A stretch of DNA of 42,217 nucleotides from a virus (Duplodnaviria > Heunggongvirae > Uroviricota > Caudoviricetes), in the IMG/VR virus record IMGVR_UViG_2703718801_000022; one strand, given 5' to 3'. Shown here one piece after another: positions 11,701 through 29,278 of this stretch. The notes under the pieces were generated by a model. It worked only from the letters and a program-made list of their open reading frames with translations. It did not search any database and was not told the origin of the DNA. The position numbers were made by a program, and so were the translations under genes. Position 1 is the first letter of the stretch. Every line of letters starts with the position of its first letter.

Positions 11701-14700
11701 TCACCGCATCACCGGATCCACTTGGTTTATTAGTGGCGCAATCCAGAACAGGTTATTGCCGGGTATCAGGGTTCGGACATTATGCACAATACGATCACCG
11801 GCATCACCATTCAACACTCCTGCGGTCACATCAATGATGCTATCCGCAAGACCAAATGACGGTCCGAATAGAGATCCTACGAATCCACGACTGGCATACC
11901 TAGACTGTGTTCCAGTGCCAAATAAAGCCCCCAGCCCAACAGCACCACCAGTAGCCTTTTCAGCCATGTTGTTATATTCCATCAATGGCCCAAGAATACC
12001 GGATCTATCTATACCCTCAAGCACCAGCTTCTCTGGTGACCAGTCAACATTTTTCCCTTTCGATGCTTCTTTAAGCGCATAGACCAGTGAGCCAAGAGCA
12101 ATCTGAAATGCAGTGCCATAATAAAATTGCGCAGTTCCTTCCTGTAACCCACCAAGTAGCGCACGGTTGTATGAAGCCGTTGTGAATGATTTAAACTGAA
12201 ATATCGTTCGCCCCATTGGAGTACTCGCCCATAAAGGTGTGTCACCAATACCGGGGGTGATGATAGTGTTATTAACGTCTTTCAGAACCGCTGACTGGAA
12301 TACTCCGGCAACGTACTGATCGTCCCATTTATCAAAGTTACCAATGTGCCATCCATCAATTACCTCACCATGTTTCTCGAACTCACTGCGAATACGCGCA
12401 GCCATATTGTCGTTGATACCGAGTTTTGCCATGCGACGTGCAGAAAACGCACCAGACAAAATACCGTCTGACGTGAGCATTCCGCTCATAGATTTGTTTA
12501 TGTCATTAAATCGATCCATGAGTGTCAGCTTGCCGAAGGCATCAGTAATTCGCTCCATTCCTGCTTCGACTGCTGTTGTCCTGGAAGAACTGTCAATCAG
12601 ATCACCAATTGCACGAGAACGTGAATGTAGTACAGTTTCCAATCCAATCCCCATCTTCAACATCTCTTCTTTGCTGGCCTTAAATGCCGGTGATTGGGAT
12701 ATCTGAGAAGCATAGCCTTTCATGGTGTTACGGAAACCATTAACCATAACCCCTCTGGCCAGATCTGGAATAGCTGATACTGTCATTCCACCGAGTTTGG
12801 TCGTGAAGTTCACATCCCGCAGAAAAGCGCCAGCACGAACAAAAAACGAAGACGGGTCATCAGGCATACCATATGTACCAACAAGACGATCGCGTAATGC
12901 TGTTATGTCTCTGAGATCATTTGCTCTTGATTTTGAAAGTCTGGACTGTTCTTTTCGTAATTCCTTTTCGTACTTTCGCATTAATGAATCGAGTTTACCC
13001 TGAGGAACAACTTCACCATTGCTCTCATAGCGTGCTTTCAGATTTGCCACACTTTCGTCATATTTCGCCTTTATTTTTTCAGGCACTTCCCGTAACAGAC
13101 TGTCATATTCGTCCTCAATTAATTGCAGACGCTCAGTCATAGTTCGTTTGCCAAACGTTCTCGTCAACTCAATTTCTGCTGCCGCTTCACGGATATGACG
13201 CTGCAGCACGTAATTCACATCACTTTCAAGATAATCCCTGATAAGACTATCAGGCACATTTAATGTTCTTTCTTTCGTACTACCTGCGGCTTTTACAGAA
13301 AATACGCTGACAAAATCCTGTGGAACCTTAGCACCAGTAATTTTATTAATTACGATATCCGCTGCAATTTCAGCATCCTCAGGATCCAGTGTTTTATTTC
13401 CTCTCGACCACCAGTCAACCAAAATACGTCGAAATTTATCGCGTTCACTGATTATTTTTCCAACTTTATATATACGTGGAAAATAGCTTGCCTGGCCTAA
13501 TGCTTTCAGTTCTTCATCTGGCGGTAATAAACCAAGCTTTTGCATTTCAACCTTCACCCGATTTAATACAGTTCGCATCGCCTGCGCCGTTTCCTGAACA
13601 ACAGGATTAGCATGCACATCACCGCTTCGCATAGCATTCCCAACCTGCTGACGAAATGAATCAAAACTCATGTCACCACCATCAGCTTTATACTTTGCGT
13701 ATGCCTGTTTATTTCCGACAACAACAGCAGCTTCTTCACGCTGCCATCCACGTGTACGGGTTTCTACAGCTACCGGTGTTTCAATCCCCCTTTCATTTCC
13801 TTTAAGGGTGAAATTATTTTCGGCTAACTCCAGCGTTGTTTTTCGCACTGTCTTGGACGGAGACTCCATTAACCTTGTCAAAGGAGTAAGATAGCTCCCT
13901 GCTTTCCATGCAGCCTTTCCAACCACCCCACCGGAAACAGGGGTTAAATCATCCAGAGTCGCTGTATCAATTTTCATAGCACCAACACTACCACCATCGG
14001 AAAGCGAAGCGGCAGCCCTGTCAGTCGCTGATGTAATGCTCATATTATCAAGAGCATCAGCAACCTCACGTGTGGCTGCAGCCCGGACGGATGGCGAAAG
14101 CGCAACACCAGCACTGGCAAACACGCCGCTCATCATCGCACCCGCTGCAACGTGAGCGGCACTTTCACCCCATGAGCGTGTTATTTGCTGATTATTCAGC
14201 ACAACCTCGCTTAATGCTGTACCGGCAGCACCAATCGCAATCTGTGAGCCAATACGCGCCAGTGCCCCTCCTTGAGCACCGGGGATAAACATTGACGCAA
14301 CAGTAACCGGATCCATTCCCGCAGCAATACTGGCAAGAGTTCCAACTACGCCAGCATCAGACAATAAACGTCTGTCTTCATTTTCATCATCTATCTGCTG
14401 CTTAATCCACGCCGTTTCCTCTGGCGATCGGGAATCTGCAAATTTCGCCCCCCAGTATTCATAACCGTGCAACTCATTTTTATCAGCATATGGGTTATAA
14501 CCTTCGACCGGTTCAAACTGTCTGGCTGGTCGGAAAAAACCAGCCAGAATATTGTTCTGTCGCATTGCAGCCCCCCATACGGAAGGCTCCGGTGGCAATG
14601 GCTCAGGATTAGCCCCTTCCGGAAGGGCAACATCAAACCCAGTTTGTTCCGGCAAAACATTACCTGACGGGATCAGTCCGTTATTAAGATCTTCAGCTTG

Positions 14701-14715
14701 TGCATAAACTGGCAT
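11701..14715 (-). CDS. Large internal virion/ejection protein (T7 gp16 position)
   Basis: 1004 aa; last large gene of the structural operon; assignment by size and gene order. Confidence 0.55.
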   Translation of the reverse strand: MPVYAQAEDLNNGLIPSGNVLPEQTGFDVALPEGANPEPLPPEPSVWGAAMRQNNILAGFFRPARQFEPVEGYNPYADKNELHGYEYWGAKFADSRSPEETAWIKQQIDDENEDRRLLSDAGVVGTLASIAAGMDPVTVASMFIPGAQGGALARIGSQIAIGAAGTALSEVVLNNQQITRSWGESAAHVAAGAMMSGVFASAGVALSPSVRAAATREVADALDNMSITSATDRAAASLSDGGSVGAMKIDTATLDDLTPVSGGVVGKAAWKAGSYLTPLTRLMESPSKTVRKTTLELAENNFTLKGNERGIETPVAVETRTRGWQREEAAVVVGNKQAYAKYKADGGDMSFDSFRQQVGNAMRSGDVHANPVVQETAQAMRTVLNRVKVEMQKLGLLPPDEELKALGQASYFPRIYKVGKIISERDKFRRILVDWWSRGNKTLDPEDAEIAADIVINKITGAKVPQDFVSVFSVKAAGSTKERTLNVPDSLIRDYLESDVNYVLQRHIREAAAEIELTRTFGKRTMTERLQLIEDEYDSLLREVPEKIKAKYDESVANLKARYESNGEVVPQGKLDSLMRKYEKELRKEQSRLSKSRANDLRDITALRDRLVGTYGMPDDPSSFFVRAGAFLRDVNFTTKLGGMTVSAIPDLARGVMVNGFRNTMKGYASQISQSPAFKASKEEMLKMGIGLETVLHSRSRAIGDLIDSSSRTTAVEAGMERITDAFGKLTLMDRFNDINKSMSGMLTSDGILSGAFSARRMAKLGINDNMAARIRSEFEKHGEVIDGWHIGNFDKWDDQYVAGVFQSAVLKDVNNTIITPGIGDTPLWASTPMGRTIFQFKSFTTASYNRALLGGLQEGTAQFYYGTAFQIALGSLVYALKEASKGKNVDWSPEKLVLEGIDRSGILGPLMEYNNMAEKATGGAVGLGALFGTGTQSRYASRGFVGSLFGPSFGLADSIIDVTAGVLNGDAGDRIVHNVRTLIPGNNLFWIAPLINQVDPVMR

Positions 14716-17432
14716 TATTTAGATCCCCACGAAAAGTAATCTTTAAATTTGTCCATACGTTCGTTATGCAGGCGCTGATACTGCTCATCCAGAGCGCGAT
14801 GCTTGTCTTTGAAGTTTCGTATAGCCTGTCCACGCATAATTTCTTCCTGCTCGTACTGCTCCCGTTCCTGCTGCATTTTCTTATAAGGTTCCCAATCTTC
14901 TAGTGATGGTTCCCAACGCATAGGACGCCCATGTTTGTTATAAAACGGCTGGACCCGATCGATGCCATTTTCATCCTTAGTTCTTACCATAATGGCGTAA
15001 TCACCATTACGAGGTGTTAACACGTCAGGGGTTATGAATAATTCTCCATTAATACGACTCTCAGGGGTTTTTGTCTCAACTACAGGAGCATTACCTGACG
15101 TGATCCCAAGCAACGTCGGACTGGTTGTTATAATCTCTTTGCGCTCACCGTACATCAGCCGTTCTTTTTCAGCTTTCCACTGCGCCGCCTGCCAGCCTGA
15201 CGGCCCATATTGATAAAGCGCCTCCGGTGCATATTTCATAAACTGCGCTTCTCCGTTAACCTCGCTGATACTCCAGGTGCGGGCTATCTGCTGGTTGGTC
15301 ATTTGCTTCGCTACGTCAGCGTTACCACCAGCAACGCGGTAGTTAATGTCATACAGCGTCTGATAGTCATTACGGAATCTAGCTGCTTCCGGCGTCTGGT
15401 CATCCGCAGACGGATCCCAACGGAACCACTGCGCCATATTGCTGACAGCAGAATTCATCGCCTTGCTGCGATCATTTTTGTACTCTTTTGAACTCTGCGT
15501 TGATGCCAATTGAGCTTTAAGAGCATCGGTCTGGTTGTACGTAAGGTTCTGCGCCTGCTCGATAGCCGCATCAGCAGACATGCCAGAATCAGTTAGTTGC
15601 TTAACAGTCAGATAAAAACCCTGCATATCCTTCGGCATATTTCCAATAGATGCATTGTCTGTTTCATATAACCGACTAAACAGTTCAGCCGCATTTTTAA
15701 CCACTTCCTGATTGCTGGATCGGGATACTGCTGAAAGCTGCGTGATGACCTGCGAAGGCATTATGCCAGTCTGAGCCACAAGCCGAACAACCCCATCATG
15801 AGTGGAGGCATCATTAATACGAAAGTTCTGCGCCATTTCTGTGTAATCAGCAGCTTTCTGCATTGACTTGTTGCTTGGGTCTAATTTTTCACCTATTGTC
15901 AGCGCCTCATTAAATCTGCGTGAATCCCGTTGCGCCTGAATTGCTTCATTTGATCTCTGAAGCAATGCAGACAATTTTCCGTAAGCATCGAGTTTTAACG
16001 CATAGTGAGGATCGTTAACCTCAGGCTTCACTTTCTGCATTTCTTCTTGCTGCTGAGAAGGAGGCAAATACTGAATTGCCTGGAATATTCTCGCGTTATC
16101 AATCGCTATATCCAGTTGGTTGATTATTTTATCTGCGTTTTTTCCATACCCCCTGATGATGGTCTCCTGAGCCGGTATATAATCTGGAACCTCACCGTTA
16201 TATAGCTGGGCCATGGTGTTATTAATAGCTGGCTCAAGCTGTTCTAATATTAACTTCCTTTGCTTTTCTATCTGACTATTAGCAAGGTTATCTATTTGAT
16301 AAATAGTCAGCGGATCCATTCCAGTTTTATTTTTTCTATATCGGGAAAGCCACCCTTGTGTTTCTGATGGAAGATTTCTGATAAATTCTTCTTCTGATAT
16401 TTCACCTTTACGTGGATCACCGACTTTGGCGATCAGTTTATCCACGTTACCCATCCCCCAGTTATATGCTGCTCCGGCCAATATTTCGGAGCCGTACTTA
16501 CCATACAGTTGATTTACATAGTCACTGGCGAGCATTTCATGCTGTTGTTCGTCCGTAGGGTTGTATTCAACGCCACGCTTGGCCGCCAGTTCTTTCCCTG
16601 TGCCCGGCATTAACTGGTATTTCCCCTGGGCTCTCTCTCCAGAAGATGTTATCGGTCCTTCAAGAAGACTACCATCAGGATTAAAATGTCGATCGCCTGA
16701 TTCAACAAGGCGTATGGCACGCATGTCCATGCCTCCAGAATCATTTTTCTGAAACAGACCATTTAGCCATCCTTCTGGATTGGCAGCGGCATAATTCTTC
16801 GCCCGCGTTTCTGTGGCACTGCGATCATCACTTTCTATTTCTTCCAGAATGCGTTCTTGTGACCATCCCCTGGCAGCTCCATATCTGGCAATGGCTACCA
16901 TTCTGGAATTTCTGGCTAAAGTGGCAGTTTGCGGGTCATTCCAGGCATCCGCTTCATTTTGTATCCATAATTTTCTCGTTGCCTGATATTGCTCATCTTC
17001 ATAGGCATTTGTCTGCCCTATCTCATGTCTGAGAACTCCAGTACTGAACTGAATTTTCTGTGTTCTGGCTTGTTGCAAAAACATATTTCTTGCTGCTTCA
17101 TCAGTCAATGAAGCAGCTATTTCTTCCACATCCTGATCAAATCCAGATATGTACTCTTGCCCCTTACCAATCGCATTTTTGCCTTGTTGTGCATAAAAAC
17201 CGGTTTGAGGGTTATAAAGACGTTCATTGCTGCGCTGATTAAGCTGAAGGATGGCATCCTGAGACAATGCAACATTCGCTTTCTGCCTGGCTTCACCATA
17301 TGCCACCGCATACTGATCTGCGACATTCGCCAGCACCTGACCTGCTTGAGGAACATCGAAGGTCTGAAAACCACCGGTTTGCACACCACGACTTTGCACC
17401 TGGCGTCCGGATGTAGTAGGAACAACTGGCAT
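14715..17432 (-). CDS. Internal virion protein with lytic transglycosylase (SLT) domain
   Basis: 905 aa; SLT-like motifs GERAQGKYQLMPGTG and AAYNWGMGNV. Confidence 0.65.
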   Translation of the reverse strand: MPVVPTTSGRQVQSRGVQTGGFQTFDVPQAGQVLANVADQYAVAYGEARQKANVALSQDAILQLNQRSNERLYNPQTGFYAQQGKNAIGKGQEYISGFDQDVEEIAASLTDEAARNMFLQQARTQKIQFSTGVLRHEIGQTNAYEDEQYQATRKLWIQNEADAWNDPQTATLARNSRMVAIARYGAARGWSQERILEEIESDDRSATETRAKNYAAANPEGWLNGLFQKNDSGGMDMRAIRLVESGDRHFNPDGSLLEGPITSSGERAQGKYQLMPGTGKELAAKRGVEYNPTDEQQHEMLASDYVNQLYGKYGSEILAGAAYNWGMGNVDKLIAKVGDPRKGEISEEEFIRNLPSETQGWLSRYRKNKTGMDPLTIYQIDNLANSQIEKQRKLILEQLEPAINNTMAQLYNGEVPDYIPAQETIIRGYGKNADKIINQLDIAIDNARIFQAIQYLPPSQQQEEMQKVKPEVNDPHYALKLDAYGKLSALLQRSNEAIQAQRDSRRFNEALTIGEKLDPSNKSMQKAADYTEMAQNFRINDASTHDGVVRLVAQTGIMPSQVITQLSAVSRSSNQEVVKNAAELFSRLYETDNASIGNMPKDMQGFYLTVKQLTDSGMSADAAIEQAQNLTYNQTDALKAQLASTQSSKEYKNDRSKAMNSAVSNMAQWFRWDPSADDQTPEAARFRNDYQTLYDINYRVAGGNADVAKQMTNQQIARTWSISEVNGEAQFMKYAPEALYQYGPSGWQAAQWKAEKERLMYGERKEIITTSPTLLGITSGNAPVVETKTPESRINGELFITPDVLTPRNGDYAIMVRTKDENGIDRVQPFYNKHGRPMRWEPSLEDWEPYKKMQQEREQYEQEEIMRGQAIRNFKDKHRALDEQYQRLHNERMDKFKDYFSWGSK

Positions 17433-24448: not shown

Positions 24449-24741
24449 TCCTGTTCACTGGCCTCTTTGGCCATCTTCAAATACTGTTCAGGGCAATGCG
24501 CCATAACGCGCTGAAACAGTTCCAGCGCCAGATTGCGTTGCCCCTCATTAAATGCCATTGCCATAGCGTCCATCGGTGAGATAGCGGAAAACACACGGCC
24601 TTTCTCCAGCACCGACCAGACAACGCGACGCCCCTGTTCACTGCTCATGACAAAGCGAATGTCATCAATTTCACGCTGCGCCATGTCACGTTGCTTACGG
24701 GCGTTTTCTTCTTTCAGTTGATCGTCTTCGTAATCTGTCAT
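24445..24741 (-). CDS. Hypothetical small acidic protein
   Basis: 98 aa ORF coupled between portal and scaffold. Confidence 0.45.
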   Translation of the reverse strand: MTDYEDDQLKEENARKQRDMAQREIDDIRFVMSSEQGRRVVWSVLEKGRVFSAISPMDAMAMAFNEGQRNLALELFQRVMAHCPEQYLKMAKEASEQE

Positions 24742-26417
24742 TGTGATTGCCCACCCTGACCACTAACTGCATTCGCCATAGCTGACAAAACACTCGGATC
24801 CGAAGTTTTAGCTTCGCTTAGCGTCTTGGCACCCTGTGCCGCAGCCATCCCCATCGCCATCATTTGTTGCTGCTGTTGCTGCTGTGCCCGTTGCTGGCGA
24901 GCCTGCTCAACCTGTTCCTGCGGAACAATGACGGTTGGAGACACTCCAGACATATCAGCGAATGCATCGATCGCCTGATCAACGTTGAGTTTGTCGAGAG
25001 CTTCTGGTTTCGCTTGCGCAAGTTGACCTATGAAGTTGACCGTAGACGCCAGACTGGACAGGCCGATAGACTTCTGCGCCTGAGCCATGACGGAAATGTA
25101 TTCGACCTTCAGGGGCATACCTTCCATCGCGTCAGGCGGTGGCGGCAGCATGTTTTTACGCACCATCATCGAGAAAGCGCGGTCAATGAGAGGATTAAGA
25201 CATTCGTCGTTCAGACGCTCCAGAACCGGCCCCAACATTAGAAGTTTTTCTTCTTTCATTTCGATCACTGCTTCAACAGGCATCGAGCGGGTATTGATGT
25301 TCTGCAACATCATGAACAGATCGACAAAGTAGGCGCTGTTAATGATTTGGCGAGTGTCCTGAATGTCTGCTACCAGATCTGCTGTACTGGGGTTAACCAG
25401 ATAAGCAGGCCTGAAACCATCCTGACCAGTAATCTGATCGATATACGTGATGTCGCCAGGAAGAAGGGATGCGCGCTGATTCTTGAGGGAAGTCGGAGCA
25501 ACCATCGGCGGATTGGTGGCTTTATCAATCAACTGCGACTTACGCTTCTGGAGAAGCTGCAATGCCTTAACAGGTCCAAGCGCCAGCATACCCGGGCATG
25601 ATGATCCATAAACATCTTCGCCGTTAACTTCCCAGCGCGGAGCCATAATTGGAAACTCATCGAATCCGGACTCACGCAACAACTTGTCGTTATCGCCACC
25701 AACCTCGTAATAAACCGATTTGAATGGCTTGTTCTTGCTATCCAGCTTCGATGTATCGCGGTCAATGTTCGGGTAAACCGAATGCATCACTTCAATCCAC
25801 TTCTCGTAGGTGCCGCTTTCCCACATGCTTTTTACGGATTCGCTGACGTTATTTAGCCCGAACTCCTGAACAAGCTGACGAACGGTCATAGAGAACTTGC
25901 GAAAACAGGTGTCCACACTGCCACGAGGTGAGTTAGCCAGGTAGTAACTGCCTATCGGGAATGGCATTGTGCGAATGATGTCCTCGTCATCCTCCAGTAC
26001 CGCCATTGCACCAGTGCTGTATGTGCCGAGGCTTCCGTATAACTGCGGAAGAGACTGGTAGAGATTCGACTTATTGAACATATCGTTCATGCGGTTCTGC
26101 ACCGCCTCAAGCCACAACTTAACAGGGCCATAATCCATCATTTCAGGATCTGGCGTAGCTAGGCGAAACCACGGACGCGCGGGGCTTGTGATGCCTGACA
26201 TCATGCCGCTGGCGAGAGTGCGCGCCGCCATAGTCCCGGTCGAATCAATAATGCGTGTATTGCGTCGATCGTTACGGTTGACATCAGAAGTCAGAAAGCG
26301 GGAACCACGCGGGTTGATGTAATCACTCAACTCGCGCCAGTGCGGCTCGAACGACTGACGCTCGCTTTCAAGTTGTGCGAACTGTTTGTTCAATCGCTCT
26401 TTAGTTGTTTCCGCCAT
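24738..26417 (-). CDS. Portal (head-to-tail connector) protein, T7 gp8-like
   Basis: 559 aa; Gln/Ala/Met-rich C-terminal tail as recalled for T7-type connectors; precedes scaffold and capsid. Confidence 0.75.
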   Translation of the reverse strand: MAETTKERLNKQFAQLESERQSFEPHWRELSDYINPRGSRFLTSDVNRNDRRNTRIIDSTGTMAARTLASGMMSGITSPARPWFRLATPDPEMMDYGPVKLWLEAVQNRMNDMFNKSNLYQSLPQLYGSLGTYSTGAMAVLEDDEDIIRTMPFPIGSYYLANSPRGSVDTCFRKFSMTVRQLVQEFGLNNVSESVKSMWESGTYEKWIEVMHSVYPNIDRDTSKLDSKNKPFKSVYYEVGGDNDKLLRESGFDEFPIMAPRWEVNGEDVYGSSCPGMLALGPVKALQLLQKRKSQLIDKATNPPMVAPTSLKNQRASLLPGDITYIDQITGQDGFRPAYLVNPSTADLVADIQDTRQIINSAYFVDLFMMLQNINTRSMPVEAVIEMKEEKLLMLGPVLERLNDECLNPLIDRAFSMMVRKNMLPPPPDAMEGMPLKVEYISVMAQAQKSIGLSSLASTVNFIGQLAQAKPEALDKLNVDQAIDAFADMSGVSPTVIVPQEQVEQARQQRAQQQQQQQMMAMGMAAAQGAKTLSEAKTSDPSVLSAMANAVSGQGGQSQ

Positions 26418-26431
26418 TTCAATGACTCCGG

Positions 26432-26638
26432 TTACTGACCAAGCAGCGTTTTACCGCTGGTATTAGCGGTTGATGTGTCGCCCTGAGAACCGGTAAGCAG
26501 CGTAGAACTACGACCAGCAGCAGCGCGACGGCGACGTGTTTCTTCGTCGCGGGCATCAACAACGGCGGCATCCTGCTCCTGTGGTGCTGCCTGAACTTCT
26601 GGTGTTGCAGGCACTGATGGTGAGCTACCCATGCACAT
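26432..26638 (-). CDS. Hypothetical small protein upstream of portal
   Basis: 68 aa ORF with GGAG 8 nt upstream; low-complexity. Confidence 0.3.
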   Translation of the reverse strand: MCMGSSPSVPATPEVQAAPQEQDAAVVDARDEETRRRRAAAGRSSTLLTGSQGDTSTANTSGKTLLGQ

Positions 26639-26728
26639 ATCAATGACTCCGTACGCAATTAAATTATTACCAACTTAACCACATATGATTTATTTATCGT
26701 AGATAGTTGACATTTAACGCACGAATTA

Positions 26729-26743
26729 TTACCTTTAAGGTAA
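26729..26743. promoter_or_regulatory. Operator-like palindrome TTACC-TTTAA-GGTAA
   Basis: Perfect member of dispersed family; upstream of portal operon and next to TTGACA at 26707-26712. Confidence 0.45.
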
Positions 26744-26759
26744 TCAAAGAGTTCATTCC

Positions 26760-27060
26760 GGTTATTAACCTGACTGGCTTGTCGTTAAATTGAACAGGTG
26801 GAGTGAGCTTTTATTTTGAGCAGTACGGCGTATGGCACATGCGCCGATAGTGGTCTGGATACGTTTAAGGGGCACCCTCCCTTGCTCGGGCAAACGAACC
26901 AGGTAGCCGGAATGTGCAAGTCGAGCGGTTTTATTCCGCGCACGGGGATTCACCATCCCGGCGATTCGGTGTGACGCCTCGGAAGAGACGAGGGTACAAC
27001 GATGAGAGCATTTATGGAGCCGCGACAAAGTGTGGTGCCTTAACAGGCTAAGTGCTCTCA
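26760..27060 (+). other. GC-rich structured non-coding region upstream of tRNA
   Basis: No convincing ORF; several stable hairpins (GGCGTATGG..CATGCGCC, CGGAAT..ATTCCG, CCTCG..CGAGG). Confidence 0.25.
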
Positions 27061-27065
27061 GCGTT

Positions 27066-27142
27066 GTGGCATTAACTCAGTTGGACAGAGCAACCGCCTT
27101 CTAAGCGGTTTGTCGCAGGTTCGAATCCTGCATGCCACGCCA
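27066..27142 (+). tRNA. tRNA-Arg (anticodon UCU)
   Basis: Cloverleaf by eye: acceptor GTGGCAT/ATGCCAC, anticodon stem ACCGC/GCGGT with loop CTTCTAA, T-arm GCAGG-TTCGAAT-CCTGC, 3' GCCA. Confidence 0.85.
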
Positions 27143-27185
27143 GAATCACGCCTAAGGACCGTGATGCCAGAAGTTCCAGGTGCTT

Positions 27186-27228
27186 GGCGGTGATGGTTTC
27201 CCTTGAAGGACTATCACCGCCCTTTTTA
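27186..27228 (+). terminator. Rho-independent terminator downstream of tRNA
   Basis: Stem GGCGGTGAT...ATCACCGCC followed by CTTTTT. Confidence 0.6.
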
Positions 27229-27340
27229 CAGCAGGACGCCATTGCGATGACTTCATGCTGTAAACCAGTACAGCCACGGAAGGCATAACTCATTGCTTCC
27301 AGTTCGCCCGGTTCGCCGGGCATTTTTTTAAGGCGAGATT

Positions 27341-27712
27341 ATGAACGACCAGCAAATCGAAAAAGAAATCGTTGAGAAAGGCAAAACGGTACCGCGAGTT
27401 ACGCCAGACCATATCGAAGGAATTATTGCTCAGGAGGCATATTTCACAGCAGAGGATGGTGCCTTTGGCAAAGCCATAAAAGCGAAACATACTGGCGGAG
27501 AGGTAAACTACCAGCCGCACGAATCACTTTCTCTGCTGACGTTCTGCGTCCTGGTGCTGCGCAACGGCTTCACCGTCACCGGAGAGAGCGCCTGTGCAAG
27601 CCCGGAAAACTTTGATGCAGAAATTGGTCGGAAGATTGCCAGGCAGAATGCTGTAAACAAAATCTGGATGCTCGAAGGTTACTTGCTGAAGCAGAAGCTA
27701 AGCGAGCAATAA
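27341..27712 (+). CDS. Phage Gp49-like family protein (moron)
   Basis: 123 aa; C-terminal ACASPENFDAEIGRKIARQNAVNKIWMLEGYLLKQ recalled as typical of the Gp49-like family; opposite strand to flanking late genes. Confidence 0.45.
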   Translation: MNDQQIEKEIVEKGKTVPRVTPDHIEGIIAQEAYFTAEDGAFGKAIKAKHTGGEVNYQPHESLSLLTFCVLVLRNGFTVTGESACASPENFDAEIGRKIARQNAVNKIWMLEGYLLKQKLSEQ

Positions 27713-27802
27713 CACCGTGACATGTCACAAACAGTCAGCCGATGAGCTGGCTTTGTTTTATCCTCATCAGAGGATATAAACGACATTATCCCCACCAGCG
27801 GA

Positions 27803-29278
27803 TTAAGCATACGGGTCATAATCTGTGATGGCCTTGCCTTGCTGGTTCTGCTGCCCAGGAATTCGCAGACGCTTCGACACAGGGAAAGCAAACGTCAGCA
27901 GTAGCGCATCGCCTTTACCCGGCGAACGCCCAAGACGCTCTTTGATATCTTCCTTCGGTTCGATAACGATTTTACCGTCCACACGAACTTTGTACTCTGC
28001 CGCCGACAGGTCGTCTGCAGTTTCCAGGTCATCCAGCATGCCGCCCAGCCTCAGCCATGTCTTACATGAGTTGAACATCTCCCCACGCTTGTTAAGCATC
28101 TGCGGGTCAGTGGACGCACCGCCGAACGGAACAAGTTGCCATGTACGTCCCCAGCCATCACCGATTGACTTCAAACCGGTTCCGTAACCGAAGTCGATGA
28201 ACACCGCGTCAGCCTGATACTGGTCTTCAAAGTCAGCGATACGCTTCGCCATAATCAGATCGTCGGTAGTCTTGTTGCCAGTCCACAGCACCTTACTGTG
28301 TAGCCCCTGCCGCAGGTATATCACCGCGTCATCAACGCCTGAATATGCCGGGTCAACACCGATTATCACCGGAGCATGCGCCACCTGCGCAGCGGTTACC
28401 ACCCGTTTCATTGCCTCATCAGTAAGACCGGTAGGGATAAACTGCAATTCAGATGCATCAGGGAATATGCCGCGCACACGGATTTTAACGAAGTCGCTGT
28501 CTTCCCCGTAGTCATCAACCCATTTCTGCAACTGCTGTTTGTTAGTGCCTTCCACCGTTCGGCTGTCAATCTGCGCAGTTTTCCAGCGGTGTTTATATTT
28601 GCGGAAACATTCGCGGAAACGTCCGGTGTTACGTGTAGGGTTTCCGAACGCCACCCAGATAATCTCAGTGTCTTCGTCCGTAAGCGCACCCTCAGCAACT
28701 TCCCACACCAGATCCGCAATGTTCGACGCTTCATCGAATACCACGATGATGCGTTTGCGCTCGTTGTGTAGTCCGGCGAATGCCTCAGTGTTGTGCTCAG
28801 ACCAAGGGATTGCGTCAGCTCGCCACCGCTTGTCGTGCCCAGGGTCATTGCTGTACATCGCGGTAGCGGTACAGGTAAACCACTCTTTCGTGATAGCAAG
28901 GTTCGACCACTTGATAATTTCCGGCCAGGTCTTCGTTCGTAGCTGGTTGTCGGTGTTGGCGGTCACCACGACCTTACAATCCTCGCAAGTGGACATGCCC
29001 CAGTTGATCAGCATTGAGATAAATGCGGATTTACCAATACCGTGACCAGAAGCGCGTGCCAGCATAAGCGGCTGATAGCGCGTCTCCGGATTCTGCAGGT
29101 GATCACGTATCTCTCGGAACGCATCAGCCTGCCACTGACGTGGGCCGGTAGCATGTGCCAGTTCAGTCCCCTCTTCCCCCCACGGGAACGCATAGAGGGC
29201 ATAGCCAAGCGGATCGTGAGTGAACCCTGCAATATCTTCGATTAACTGCTCTTCAGGAGATAACGCTGCATCTGTCAC
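27803..29278 (-). CDS. terL: Terminase large subunit
   Basis: 491 aa; Walker A-like ARASGHGIGKS, acidic ATPase motif VVFDEA, C-terminal nuclease region; precedes portal. Confidence 0.85.
   Translation of the reverse strand: MTDAALSPEEQLIEDIAGFTHDPLGYALYAFPWGEEGTELAHATGPRQWQADAFREIRDHLQNPETRYQPLMLARASGHGIGKSAFISMLINWGMSTCEDCKVVVTANTDNQLRTKTWPEIIKWSNLAITKEWFTCTATAMYSNDPGHDKRWRADAIPWSEHNTEAFAGLHNERKRIIVVFDEASNIADLVWEVAEGALTDEDTEIIWVAFGNPTRNTGRFRECFRKYKHRWKTAQIDSRTVEGTNKQQLQKWVDDYGEDSDFVKIRVRGIFPDASELQFIPTGLTDEAMKRVVTAAQVAHAPVIIGVDPAYSGVDDAVIYLRQGLHSKVLWTGNKTTDDLIMAKRIADFEDQYQADAVFIDFGYGTGLKSIGDGWGRTWQLVPFGGASTDPQMLNKRGEMFNSCKTWLRLGGMLDDLETADDLSAAEYKVRVDGKIVIEPKEDIKERLGRSPGKGDALLLTFAFPVSKRLRIPGQQNQQGKAITDYDPYA

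Follow-up and report, generated by a model that had tools for sequence, protein, structure and literature searches.

The 42,217-nucleotide stretch of DNA analysed here (the window; IMG/VR record IMGVR_UViG_2703718801_000022) is a phiV10/epsilon15-like (Uetakevirus) prophage, in which positions 26400–27800 are 96% identical to phage phiV10. Between its gp3-like gene and its large terminase gene lies an island whose features are all on the plus strand. Positions 26822–27067 of this island almost certainly encode a structured phage RNA of an uncatalogued family. It is composed of a pseudoknotted 5′ domain of 175 nt followed by the long hairpin P6, and it is predicted to open an early transcript from a repressor-controlled promoter (26707–26735; operator at 26728–26744). 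A sequence-only reading of the window had pointed to about 300 nt of hairpin-rich, non-coding sequence ahead of a tRNA-Arg and had suspected it to be an RNA in its own right. Both points hold: the promoter-to-tRNA stretch of ~325 nt folds better than its shuffles (z = −2.6, with 1 of 100 shuffles as good), and it carries a conserved structure with compensatory base changes across many phages. As to its function, we favor, at a probability of roughly 0.4, a cis-acting antiterminator resembling the put RNAs of phage HK022.

Structure and covariation of the RNA

The 5′ domain (26822–26996, plus strand) consists of five helices and a pseudoknot. Helix H1 (26826–26846) is followed by P2 (26851–26857 with 26900–26909), which encloses a variable hairpin, by P3 (26920–26922 with 26960–26962), by P4 (26945–26959, loop UUCACCA) and by P5 (26977–26993, loop GAAGAGA); a second variable hairpin within the domain is listed between P3 and P4. 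An invariant 19-mer, GGTAGCCGGAATGTGCAAG (26902–26920), occupies the P2/P3 junction and is partly single-stranded. In the pseudoknot (26951–26971), CACC of the P4 loop (26951–26954) pairs with GGUG at 26968–26971. Indels in the variable hairpins give the domain a length of 149–181 nt among relatives. It is continued by P6 (26996–27067, plus strand), a long hairpin (ACAACGATGAGAGCATT ... AAGTGCTCTCAGCGTTGT / ACAACGAUGAGAGCA...UGCUCUCAGCGUUGU) that at its 3′ end reaches two bases into the tRNA, and whose apical insert varies from 30 to 150 nt in relatives.

Homologs were gathered by BLAST or by exact match to the 19-mer, and the alignment and counts reported here rest on this collection; the range of the family and the invariance of the 19-mer are therefore biased towards close relatives. 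The structure of the 5′ domain was written from an alignment of 37 sequences (A3), all less than 93% identical. On this alignment, 98.0% of cells form standard pairs, compared with 30–45% when the 3′ partners are slid by one to three columns, and double changes are seen in 11 of the 32 pairs. The alignment has a covariation score of 0.256, compared with 0.120 for shuffles, and not one shuffle out of 500 scores as high. The pseudoknot covaries perfectly: among 99 distinct sequences, 74 have CACC/GGUG and 22 have AACC/GGUU, with no mixed combination; on A3, 100% of its cells pair, 5 with double changes, and the change recurs in at least three lineages. For P6, RNAalifold finds double changes at six pairs in 18 sequences. 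A covariance model built from the 5′ domain (R1) matches 26822–26996 with 137 bits (E = 1e-40) over model positions 1–160 of 160, and H1, P2, the 19-mer, P3, P4 with the pseudoknot, and P5 are all in place.

Promoter, operator and 5′ leader

Transcription of the island is predicted to start at a promoter-like element read from the sequence, TTGACA-17 nt-TACCTT (26707–26735, plus strand); a stricter promoter scan did not list this site. The corresponding TTGACA/TTGACC-17-TACCTT elements of Uetake-like loci stand 41–125 nt 5′ of H1, and in these loci the palindrome ATTACCN5GGTAAT overlaps the promoter −10. The predicted operator of the window, ATTACCTTTAAGGTAAT (26728–26744), likewise overlaps the −10 hexamer. 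With at most one mismatch, the palindrome occurs at 11 sites in the window against 0.04 expected, starting at 3194, 6752, 8199, 26728, 29870, 29888, 33600, 33662, 35993, 36705 and 36767. These look like a dispersed set of repressor operators, of the kind that P1 has for C1, and the site homologous to that at 26728 is marked as a repressor-binding site/operator in the epsilon15 record. When upstream sequences are compared by eye, the 5′ leader that follows (26742–26821, plus strand) resembles a P6-like hairpin that has decayed; the hairpin appears intact, again by eye, in the related loci L003, L016 and L146.

A slot for a tRNA or a multi-hairpin domain

Directly after P6 comes the tRNA-Arg (27066–27142, plus strand; anticodon UCU), the only tRNA that ARAGORN finds in the window, with CCA encoded and G as the discriminator. 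Its identity had been proposed from the letters of the island and is confirmed both by ARAGORN (anticodon tct) and by the Rfam tRNA model RF00005 (63.8 bits against a gathering score of 29). The phiV10 record leaves this tRNA unannotated.

The tRNA occupies a slot that is filled in relatives by a multi-hairpin domain of 85–210 nt. In these non-tRNA members, the terminal GUUGUGG runs on as GUUGUGGUGA and pairs, 85–210 nt further 3′, with (U/C)CACCACAAC; covarying versions of the stem are found (GUUGUGUUAA/UUUACACAAC). The slot stem, GUUGUGG.../...CCACAAC, closes a domain of about three hairpins. In the window, the first four bases of the tRNA are the GUGG of the slot motif, and its 3′ strand gives CCAC. 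The tRNA and non-tRNA versions share their flanks, with A(A/G)AAUCACGCCUnAGGACCGUGAU after the slot in both, and a small conserved hairpin, ATCACG-CCTAAGGAC-CGTGAT (27145–27165, plus strand), follows the tRNA or the non-tRNA domain in several loci.

Among 47 Uetake-like loci, the tRNA is present in 27 and absent from 20. SPN1S has it, PAT1 and Tyrion are without it, and all three carry an intact 5′ domain scoring at least 150 bits. On these comparative grounds, the tRNA is an optional passenger and the RNA the conserved resident. More widely, a tRNA lies near the element in 49 of 155 loci and directly abuts it in 46, as tRNA-Arg after the element in 28 and as tRNA-Ile2 before it in 18; in P1-like phages, the tRNA-Ile2 ends ~14 nt 5′ of H1. 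At a locus of Superficieibacter electus (L139; element at 4199–4359, minus strand), a slot-type domain, GTGGTGAATGCGCAGGCTGATGCGC...CCACCACAAC, stands directly 5′ of H1, which suggests that the modules can stand in tandem or in another order.

E. coli genes use AGA at ~2 per 1000 codons. In 44 mechanically chosen long open reading frames (ORFs) of the window, AGA makes up 12.7% of arginine codons, or 7.1 per 1000 codons; it is concentrated in 4444–6648 and 11701–17432 and absent from the portal gene, the terminase gene and the ORFs between 22269 and 24448. The suggestion that the tRNA serves a rare codon is compatible with this AGA use. The tRNA probably supplies AGA decoding for the AGA-rich tail and tailspike genes.

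Distribution among phages and bacterial genomes

No Rfam 15 family matches the RNA at E ≤ 10 over 26400–27800 or at E ≤ 1 in four related loci, where the scan returned only C4 and isrK, elsewhere in those loci. Weak RyhB-like and other Rfam matches in the island (E > 2) concern terminator t2 (described below) only. The tRNA and covariance-model scans that had been put forward as a check on the island confirm the tRNA and leave the leader without any Rfam match at E ≤ 10.

Sensitive BLAST with 26640–27065 finds, from 26825 on, 76–83% identity to non-coding DNA of otherwise unrelated phages, including P1, P7, D6, SJ46, cdtI, mEp460, Stx2c phages and Klebsiella phages. In P1, P7, D6, SJ46 and RCS47, the element is part of the ban operon, which C1 controls, and is flanked there by trnI (tRNA-Ile2) and ban. 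In cdtI, mEp460, 1720a-02, Stx2a_WGPS2, Stx2c phages, mEp390 and a 'Stenotrophomonas' phage, it lies 150–280 nt 3′ of cI, on the cI strand and ahead of the early-left operon. Three unrelated phage types (lambda-like, P1-like and epsilon15-like) carry it, all contexts are phage or prophage, and there is one copy per genome: no second copy, on the PR side or elsewhere, was found in the whole mEp460 genome, the window or 57 other loci.

The 19-mer is invariant in 10 of the 10 relatives found by BLAST and occurs exactly in at least 120 IMG/VR contigs. Species-representative genomes yield 24 matches, and the covariance model confirms all but one, namely those in 22 enterobacterial species genomes and one in a 1753-bp contig of a 'Bacillota' metagenome-assembled genome (MAG; L155). 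The exception, in an Oscillospiraceae MAG (L143), was discarded as a chance 19-mer match. The L155 element is full-scoring (159 bits) and typical of enterobacterial phages, and the MAG was probably misbinned or contaminated. By BLAST, the element is present in 1840 of 5426 complete E. coli genomes, with 554 places on plasmids, and no annotated feature lies under it at the BLAST-found places; E. coli 13E0780 matches the RNA element at 100%, and UTI89 is another carrier. In literature on put, the P1 ban operon and trnI, mEp460 and SfV, phiV10 and epsilon15, and prophage small RNAs, we found no description of the RNA, although an earlier one may exist elsewhere.

In phage records, hypothetical proteins are annotated at places that overlap the RNA or lie antisense to the tRNA, namely PhiV10p04 (L001, 3173–3424), gp36 and gp37 of mEp460 (L005, 2443–2996), gp36 of mEp390 (L012, 2511–2753) and gp54 of Tyrion (L160, 1906–2067). 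These are probably spurious annotations and not genes.

Terminators, cargo gene and early-operon context

Two terminator-like structures on the plus strand follow the slot in the window. The first, t1 (27186–27227), is a 14-bp stem followed by CTTTTT and is kept in epsilon15; the second, t2 (27306–27329), is an intrinsic terminator, GCCCGGTTCGCCGGGC (GCCCGG..CCGGGC) followed by T7, and appears as a rho-independent terminator in the epsilon15 record. A terminator had been anticipated here and is present, but there are two plus-strand hairpins before the downstream ORF, not one, and the hairpin that had been assigned to the Gp49-like gene as its own is t2. The T-tract of t2 ends 12 nt 5′ of the ATG of ORF 27341–27712. 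This gap leaves no room for a promoter, so the gene would be transcribed only by read-through from upstream. The ORF (plus strand, 123 amino acids) is indeed Gp49-like, matching the Pfam family Phage_gp49_66 (PF13876) with 119.6 bits against a cut-off of 27 (E = 8.6e-35); it falls into phrog_322, whose listed function is unknown. A defence-system role for this gene was considered and dropped, PADLOC giving no match. A third terminator-like hairpin, t3 (27733–27759, plus strand), lies 3′ of the ORF and closes the island, and it is an annotated terminator in the phiV10 record. The cargo gene after the terminators differs from phage to phage.

In other phages, the module is always found inside a repressor-controlled early transcript, usually 5′ of terminators, and at over 100 loci no other element precedes it after the early promoter. 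Lambda-like loci have a TTGACA-type promoter, accompanied by operator-like repeats, immediately after the cI terminator, and the RNA starts 36–84 nt past this promoter. Terminator-like hairpins lie 3′ of the RNA in 115 of 147 distinct contexts. In mEp460 and an Stx2c phage, a strong terminator stands between the RNA and the first early-left ORF; that of mEp460 consists of GGCGGUACCAG...CUGGUACCGC and a U5 tract, and another long hairpin also stands ahead of the first early-left ORF. The first ORFs 3′ of the RNA gave no N-like Pfam match.

Two phages have incomplete versions. Epsilon15 (L002, 3544–3616) has only H1 and part of P2 left (33 bits). Compared with the window, its deletion corresponds to 26861–27191 and removes the core, P6, the tRNA and the small hairpin; the promoter, the operator, the terminators and gene 50 are kept. 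An 'RNaseIII' site annotated in the epsilon15 record overlaps the H1/P2 remnant. ST64B (L163, 7240–8050, minus strand) is without the 5′ domain and keeps a P6-like hairpin ending in CGTTGTGG, a GTTGTGGTGA...CACCACAAC domain and the terminators; it had been considered as a well-studied host of the element and was ruled out because the 5′ domain is absent. In place of that domain ST64B has another 5′ module, GAACAGGCAGGACGCCCACGAAGTAGCCGCC...GGCATACGAA, and the same module precedes the 5′ domain in L095. The module combination of ST64B and the arrangement in L095 suggest that N-less lambda-like phages have mosaic early-left leaders, put together from several RNA modules.

A putative antiterminator and its alternatives

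Under the reading that we favor, the RNA would fold while it is being made and, in the manner of HK022 put, would act in cis on the polymerase that transcribes it. The put RNAs suppress pausing and termination via the β′ zinc-binding domain of the transcribing polymerase. In the window, polymerase would then pass t1 and t2, and the cargo gene would be expressed; in lambda-like relatives without N, the module would let the whole early-left operon be transcribed. As the tRNA sits in the slot directly after the RNA, cleavage by RNase P where the tRNA begins may set the 3′ end of the RNA. Such cleavage is compatible with a put-like activity, because put acts without the need of a tether to the transcript (PMC9378689). 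The place right after the early promoter, the terminators before the first gene and the lack of an N-like ORF downstream all fit antitermination. Likewise, putL lies just 3′ of PL, and put suppresses both intrinsic and Rho-dependent termination (PMC9378689). For the related phage LLS, whose cI is 89% identical to that of mEp460_4F5 and whose early-left operon is ST64B-like, no N homolog was reported and a put RNA-mediated mechanism was proposed as possible (PMC12315714, 2025). A broader proposal, which we consider speculative and on balance unlikely, would make the family a new class of RNA-only processive antiterminator, one that replaces the N protein in N-less lambda-like phages (mEp460, cdtI, Stx2c and SfV-like early regions) and was borrowed by P1-like and epsilon15-like phages for their own repressor-controlled early operons, with the tRNA or slot domain as a built-in RNase P release signal.

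Several observations weigh against a put-like antiterminator. HK022 put is ~70 nt long, forms two stem-loops and occurs in two copies (PL and PR), whereas the present family, with at least 250 nt, a pseudoknot and six helices, occurs once per genome and is far larger and more ornate. R1 finds no match in HK022 PL/PR at E ≤ 10 with filters off, scoring at most 1 bit. With putL located by published primers and putR by eye, shuffle-tested local alignment gave z values of −0.3 to 3.3 for putL and 0.4 to 2.2 for putR, the best value hanging on post hoc trimming. ST64B has the same early-left operon, the P6-like hairpin, the slot domain and the terminators, yet no 5′ domain. Epsilon15 has lost the core, P6 and the tRNA and kept t1, t2 and an intact cargo gene, so read-through there would be independent of the 5′ domain. 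No intrinsic terminator follows the element in P1 and P1-like copies, and the ban operon genes that flank the P1 copy (tciABC, trnI, ban and dbn) are non-essential by CRISPR interference (PMC10695390). Lastly, the recurrent tRNA abutment, with 28 tRNA-Arg after and 18 tRNA-Ile2 before the element, is left unexplained by antitermination.

Between HK022 (L134, 219–313, minus strand) and window positions 26822–26920, we noted a colinear series of short matches, ACGGCG...CATGCGYCG..AGCG...CAGG...CGG.AATG.TGC, in putL and the H1/P2/19-mer region. With the variable hairpin removed by hand, putL reaches z = 2.0 against the trimmed window and 3.3 against trimmed mEp460; putR and the covariance model lend it no support. 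The likeness could be chance or very distant kinship, and we treat it as a weak lead.

A tentative but serious alternative is a stable, trans-acting early RNA of ~250–330 nt, cut out by tRNA-processing enzymes and binding a conserved host component, akin to GOLLD, ROOL or the stable RNAs encoded in the tRNA cluster of T4. Release would fall to RNase P, cutting where the tRNA or slot domain begins, and in P1 to the 3′ maturation of tRNA-Ile; the terminators would end an RNA gene, with the downstream genes riding on leak-through. Direct tRNA abutment in two independent arrangements fits release by tRNA-processing enzymes better, and the swapping of a tRNA and a stem-closed multi-hairpin domain in one slot with identical flanks also speaks for it. 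The RNA is constant while the cargo after the terminators varies, and 19 nt are invariant across phages that otherwise differ by 20–30%. The modules also occur apart, P1 having the 5′ domain only and ST64B only P6 and the slot domain, and the element is dispensable in epsilon15, just as the genes flanking the P1 copy are non-essential. Phage RNAs of the GOLLD/ROOL type are themselves found near tRNA islands, with tRNAs sometimes inside (PMC12286853). Against a trans-acting RNA stand its place as the first element after the early promoter in more than 100 loci and the lack of similarity to the Rfam models of GOLLD or ROOL; moreover, transcription of the lambda-like early-left operon through the RNA and its terminator suits a role in cis.

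It is improbable that the element is a sensing leader of the riboswitch kind, in which the 5′ domain would bind a metabolite, tRNA or protein and set passage of t1 and t2 via alternative GUUG pairings. A pseudoknotted domain with invariant junction nucleotides does lie 5′ of terminators, and GUUG can pair either with the 5′ CAAC of P6 or, in non-tRNA versions, with a downstream CACAAC. However, the terminators stand 120–350 nt away from the conserved domain without overlapping it, a distance into which a whole tRNA fits, the P1 copies are without a terminator, and no known aptamer model in Rfam matches at E ≤ 10.

There is very little chance that the element has no function, being promoter spacer, a tRNA 5′ leader or decayed tRNA remnants conserved via recent DNA sharing: the lack of an Rfam match and the survival of epsilon15 without the element are in its favor, but the compensatory changes with their sharp loss of pairing in slid alignments, the perfect covariation of the pseudoknot and the spread over three unrelated phage types and 22 enterobacterial species contradict it. 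For the same reason, the leader is no simple promoter spacer, although Rfam is silent on it, nor the second degenerate RNA gene that had been suggested; neither ARAGORN nor the tRNA model, the latter even at E ≤ 10, matches it, and a well-conserved pseudoknotted family is found instead. Fainter still is the case for small proteins, encoded by plus-strand ORFs 26816–26974 or 26914–27051 or by the annotated minus-strand ORFs: ORFs of 45–87 amino acids do exist on both strands and the mEp460, mEp390, Tyrion and phiV10 records annotate hypothetical proteins there, but length differences among relatives are not multiples of three and conserved G-U pairs are tolerated on the plus strand only, both of which argue against coding, and substitutions are paired across stems and not patterned by codon. 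Spacer, tRNA remnant and small ORFs, even when taken together, merit hardly any weight.

Two further candidates were set aside. An RfaH ops site in the invariant GGTAGC was dropped, since by eye it agrees with only 7 of 12 positions of the ops consensus and the essential C3 is absent. A single-stranded DNA structure (a primosome or ssi site by ban) is unlikely, as the element is always co-oriented with transcription and lies between promoter and terminators.

Locus and prophage setting

The neighboring genes are on the minus strand: the portal/connector gene (24738–26417; phrog_332, E = 1e-253), a gp3-like ORF of 68 amino acids between the portal gene and the island (26432–26638), and, on the other side, the large terminase gene (27803–29278; phrog_2). 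The antisense placement of the island, with its plus-strand features between minus-strand portal and terminase genes, is thus as the sequence-only reading had described it. It is not a local insertion, however, for the same unit of promoter/operator, RNA, terminators and variable cargo occupies this site in Uetakeviruses of Salmonella, Enterobacter and Klebsiella.

That late transcription crosses the island antisense is plausible and no stronger than that, because a promoter scan found no sigma-70-like minus-strand promoter upstream of gp3/portal and the minus-strand hairpin 3′ of terminase is weak. The epsilon15 record annotates an RNase III site on the minus strand, from which it appears that its annotators assumed a crossing transcript. 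Elsewhere in the window, Rfam at gathering thresholds identifies isrK (7184–7260, 67 bits) and a C4 antisense RNA (7285–7368, 66 bits), a P1-type antirepressor control module; the isrK/C4 pair is also present in mEp460 and an Stx2c phage, both of which carry the new RNA.

Significance and comparison with known systems

P1, Shiga-toxin phages and roughly every third complete E. coli genome contain this conserved, pseudoknotted RNA of at least 250 nt, without annotation there and without an Rfam family, which is unexpected given how heavily those genomes are studied. Its position makes it a testable candidate for how N-less lambda-like phages pass their early-left terminators, a role for which a put-like RNA could only be guessed at in 2025 (PMC12315714). 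The interchangeable tRNA slot, in turn, ties the family to the unexplained association of large phage RNAs such as GOLLD and ROOL with tRNAs.

As a phage-borne tRNA-Arg(UCU) for rare AGA codons, the tRNA of the window is an ordinary example: it is argU-like, its CCA is encoded, and the tail genes are rich in AGA. Unlike a stand-alone phage tRNA-Arg, it is embedded in the conserved slot of a larger RNA module, and close relatives are without it.

The C4 RNA of P1/P7 and the CI RNA of P4 are leader-derived regulatory RNAs, matured by RNase P from tRNA-like stems; both are antisense regulators of 70–90 nt with known targets. The new RNA resembles them as a phage RNA in an operon leader, with release by tRNA-processing enzymes predicted in its case. 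No model of the C4 clan CL00128 (RF01695 or RF03163) matches the element, the C4 of the window lying at the separate site given above.

With GOLLD and ROOL, the family shares an origin in phages or prophages, an elaborate pseudoknotted structure, adjacency to tRNAs and a non-essential nature, and in those RNAs, too, a tRNA sometimes lies inside a variable region (PMC12286853). The RNA of the window is itself phage-encoded and tRNA-adjacent; the Rfam models of GOLLD and ROOL give no match at E ≤ 10 over 26400–27800 or at E ≤ 1 in the four related loci. The family differs in being smaller (~250 nt, rising to ~500 nt at most when the slot domain is counted), in its Enterobacterales hosts and in its place at the 5′ start of early operons.

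That place is shared with put of HK022, a phage that is likewise lambda-like and without N; put lies there 3′ of PL, an early promoter under repressor control, with terminators ahead. The new RNA occupies the same position, 3′ of an early promoter and 5′ of terminators, in phages without N, and, if its putative role is correct, both would be structured RNAs that face the host polymerase.

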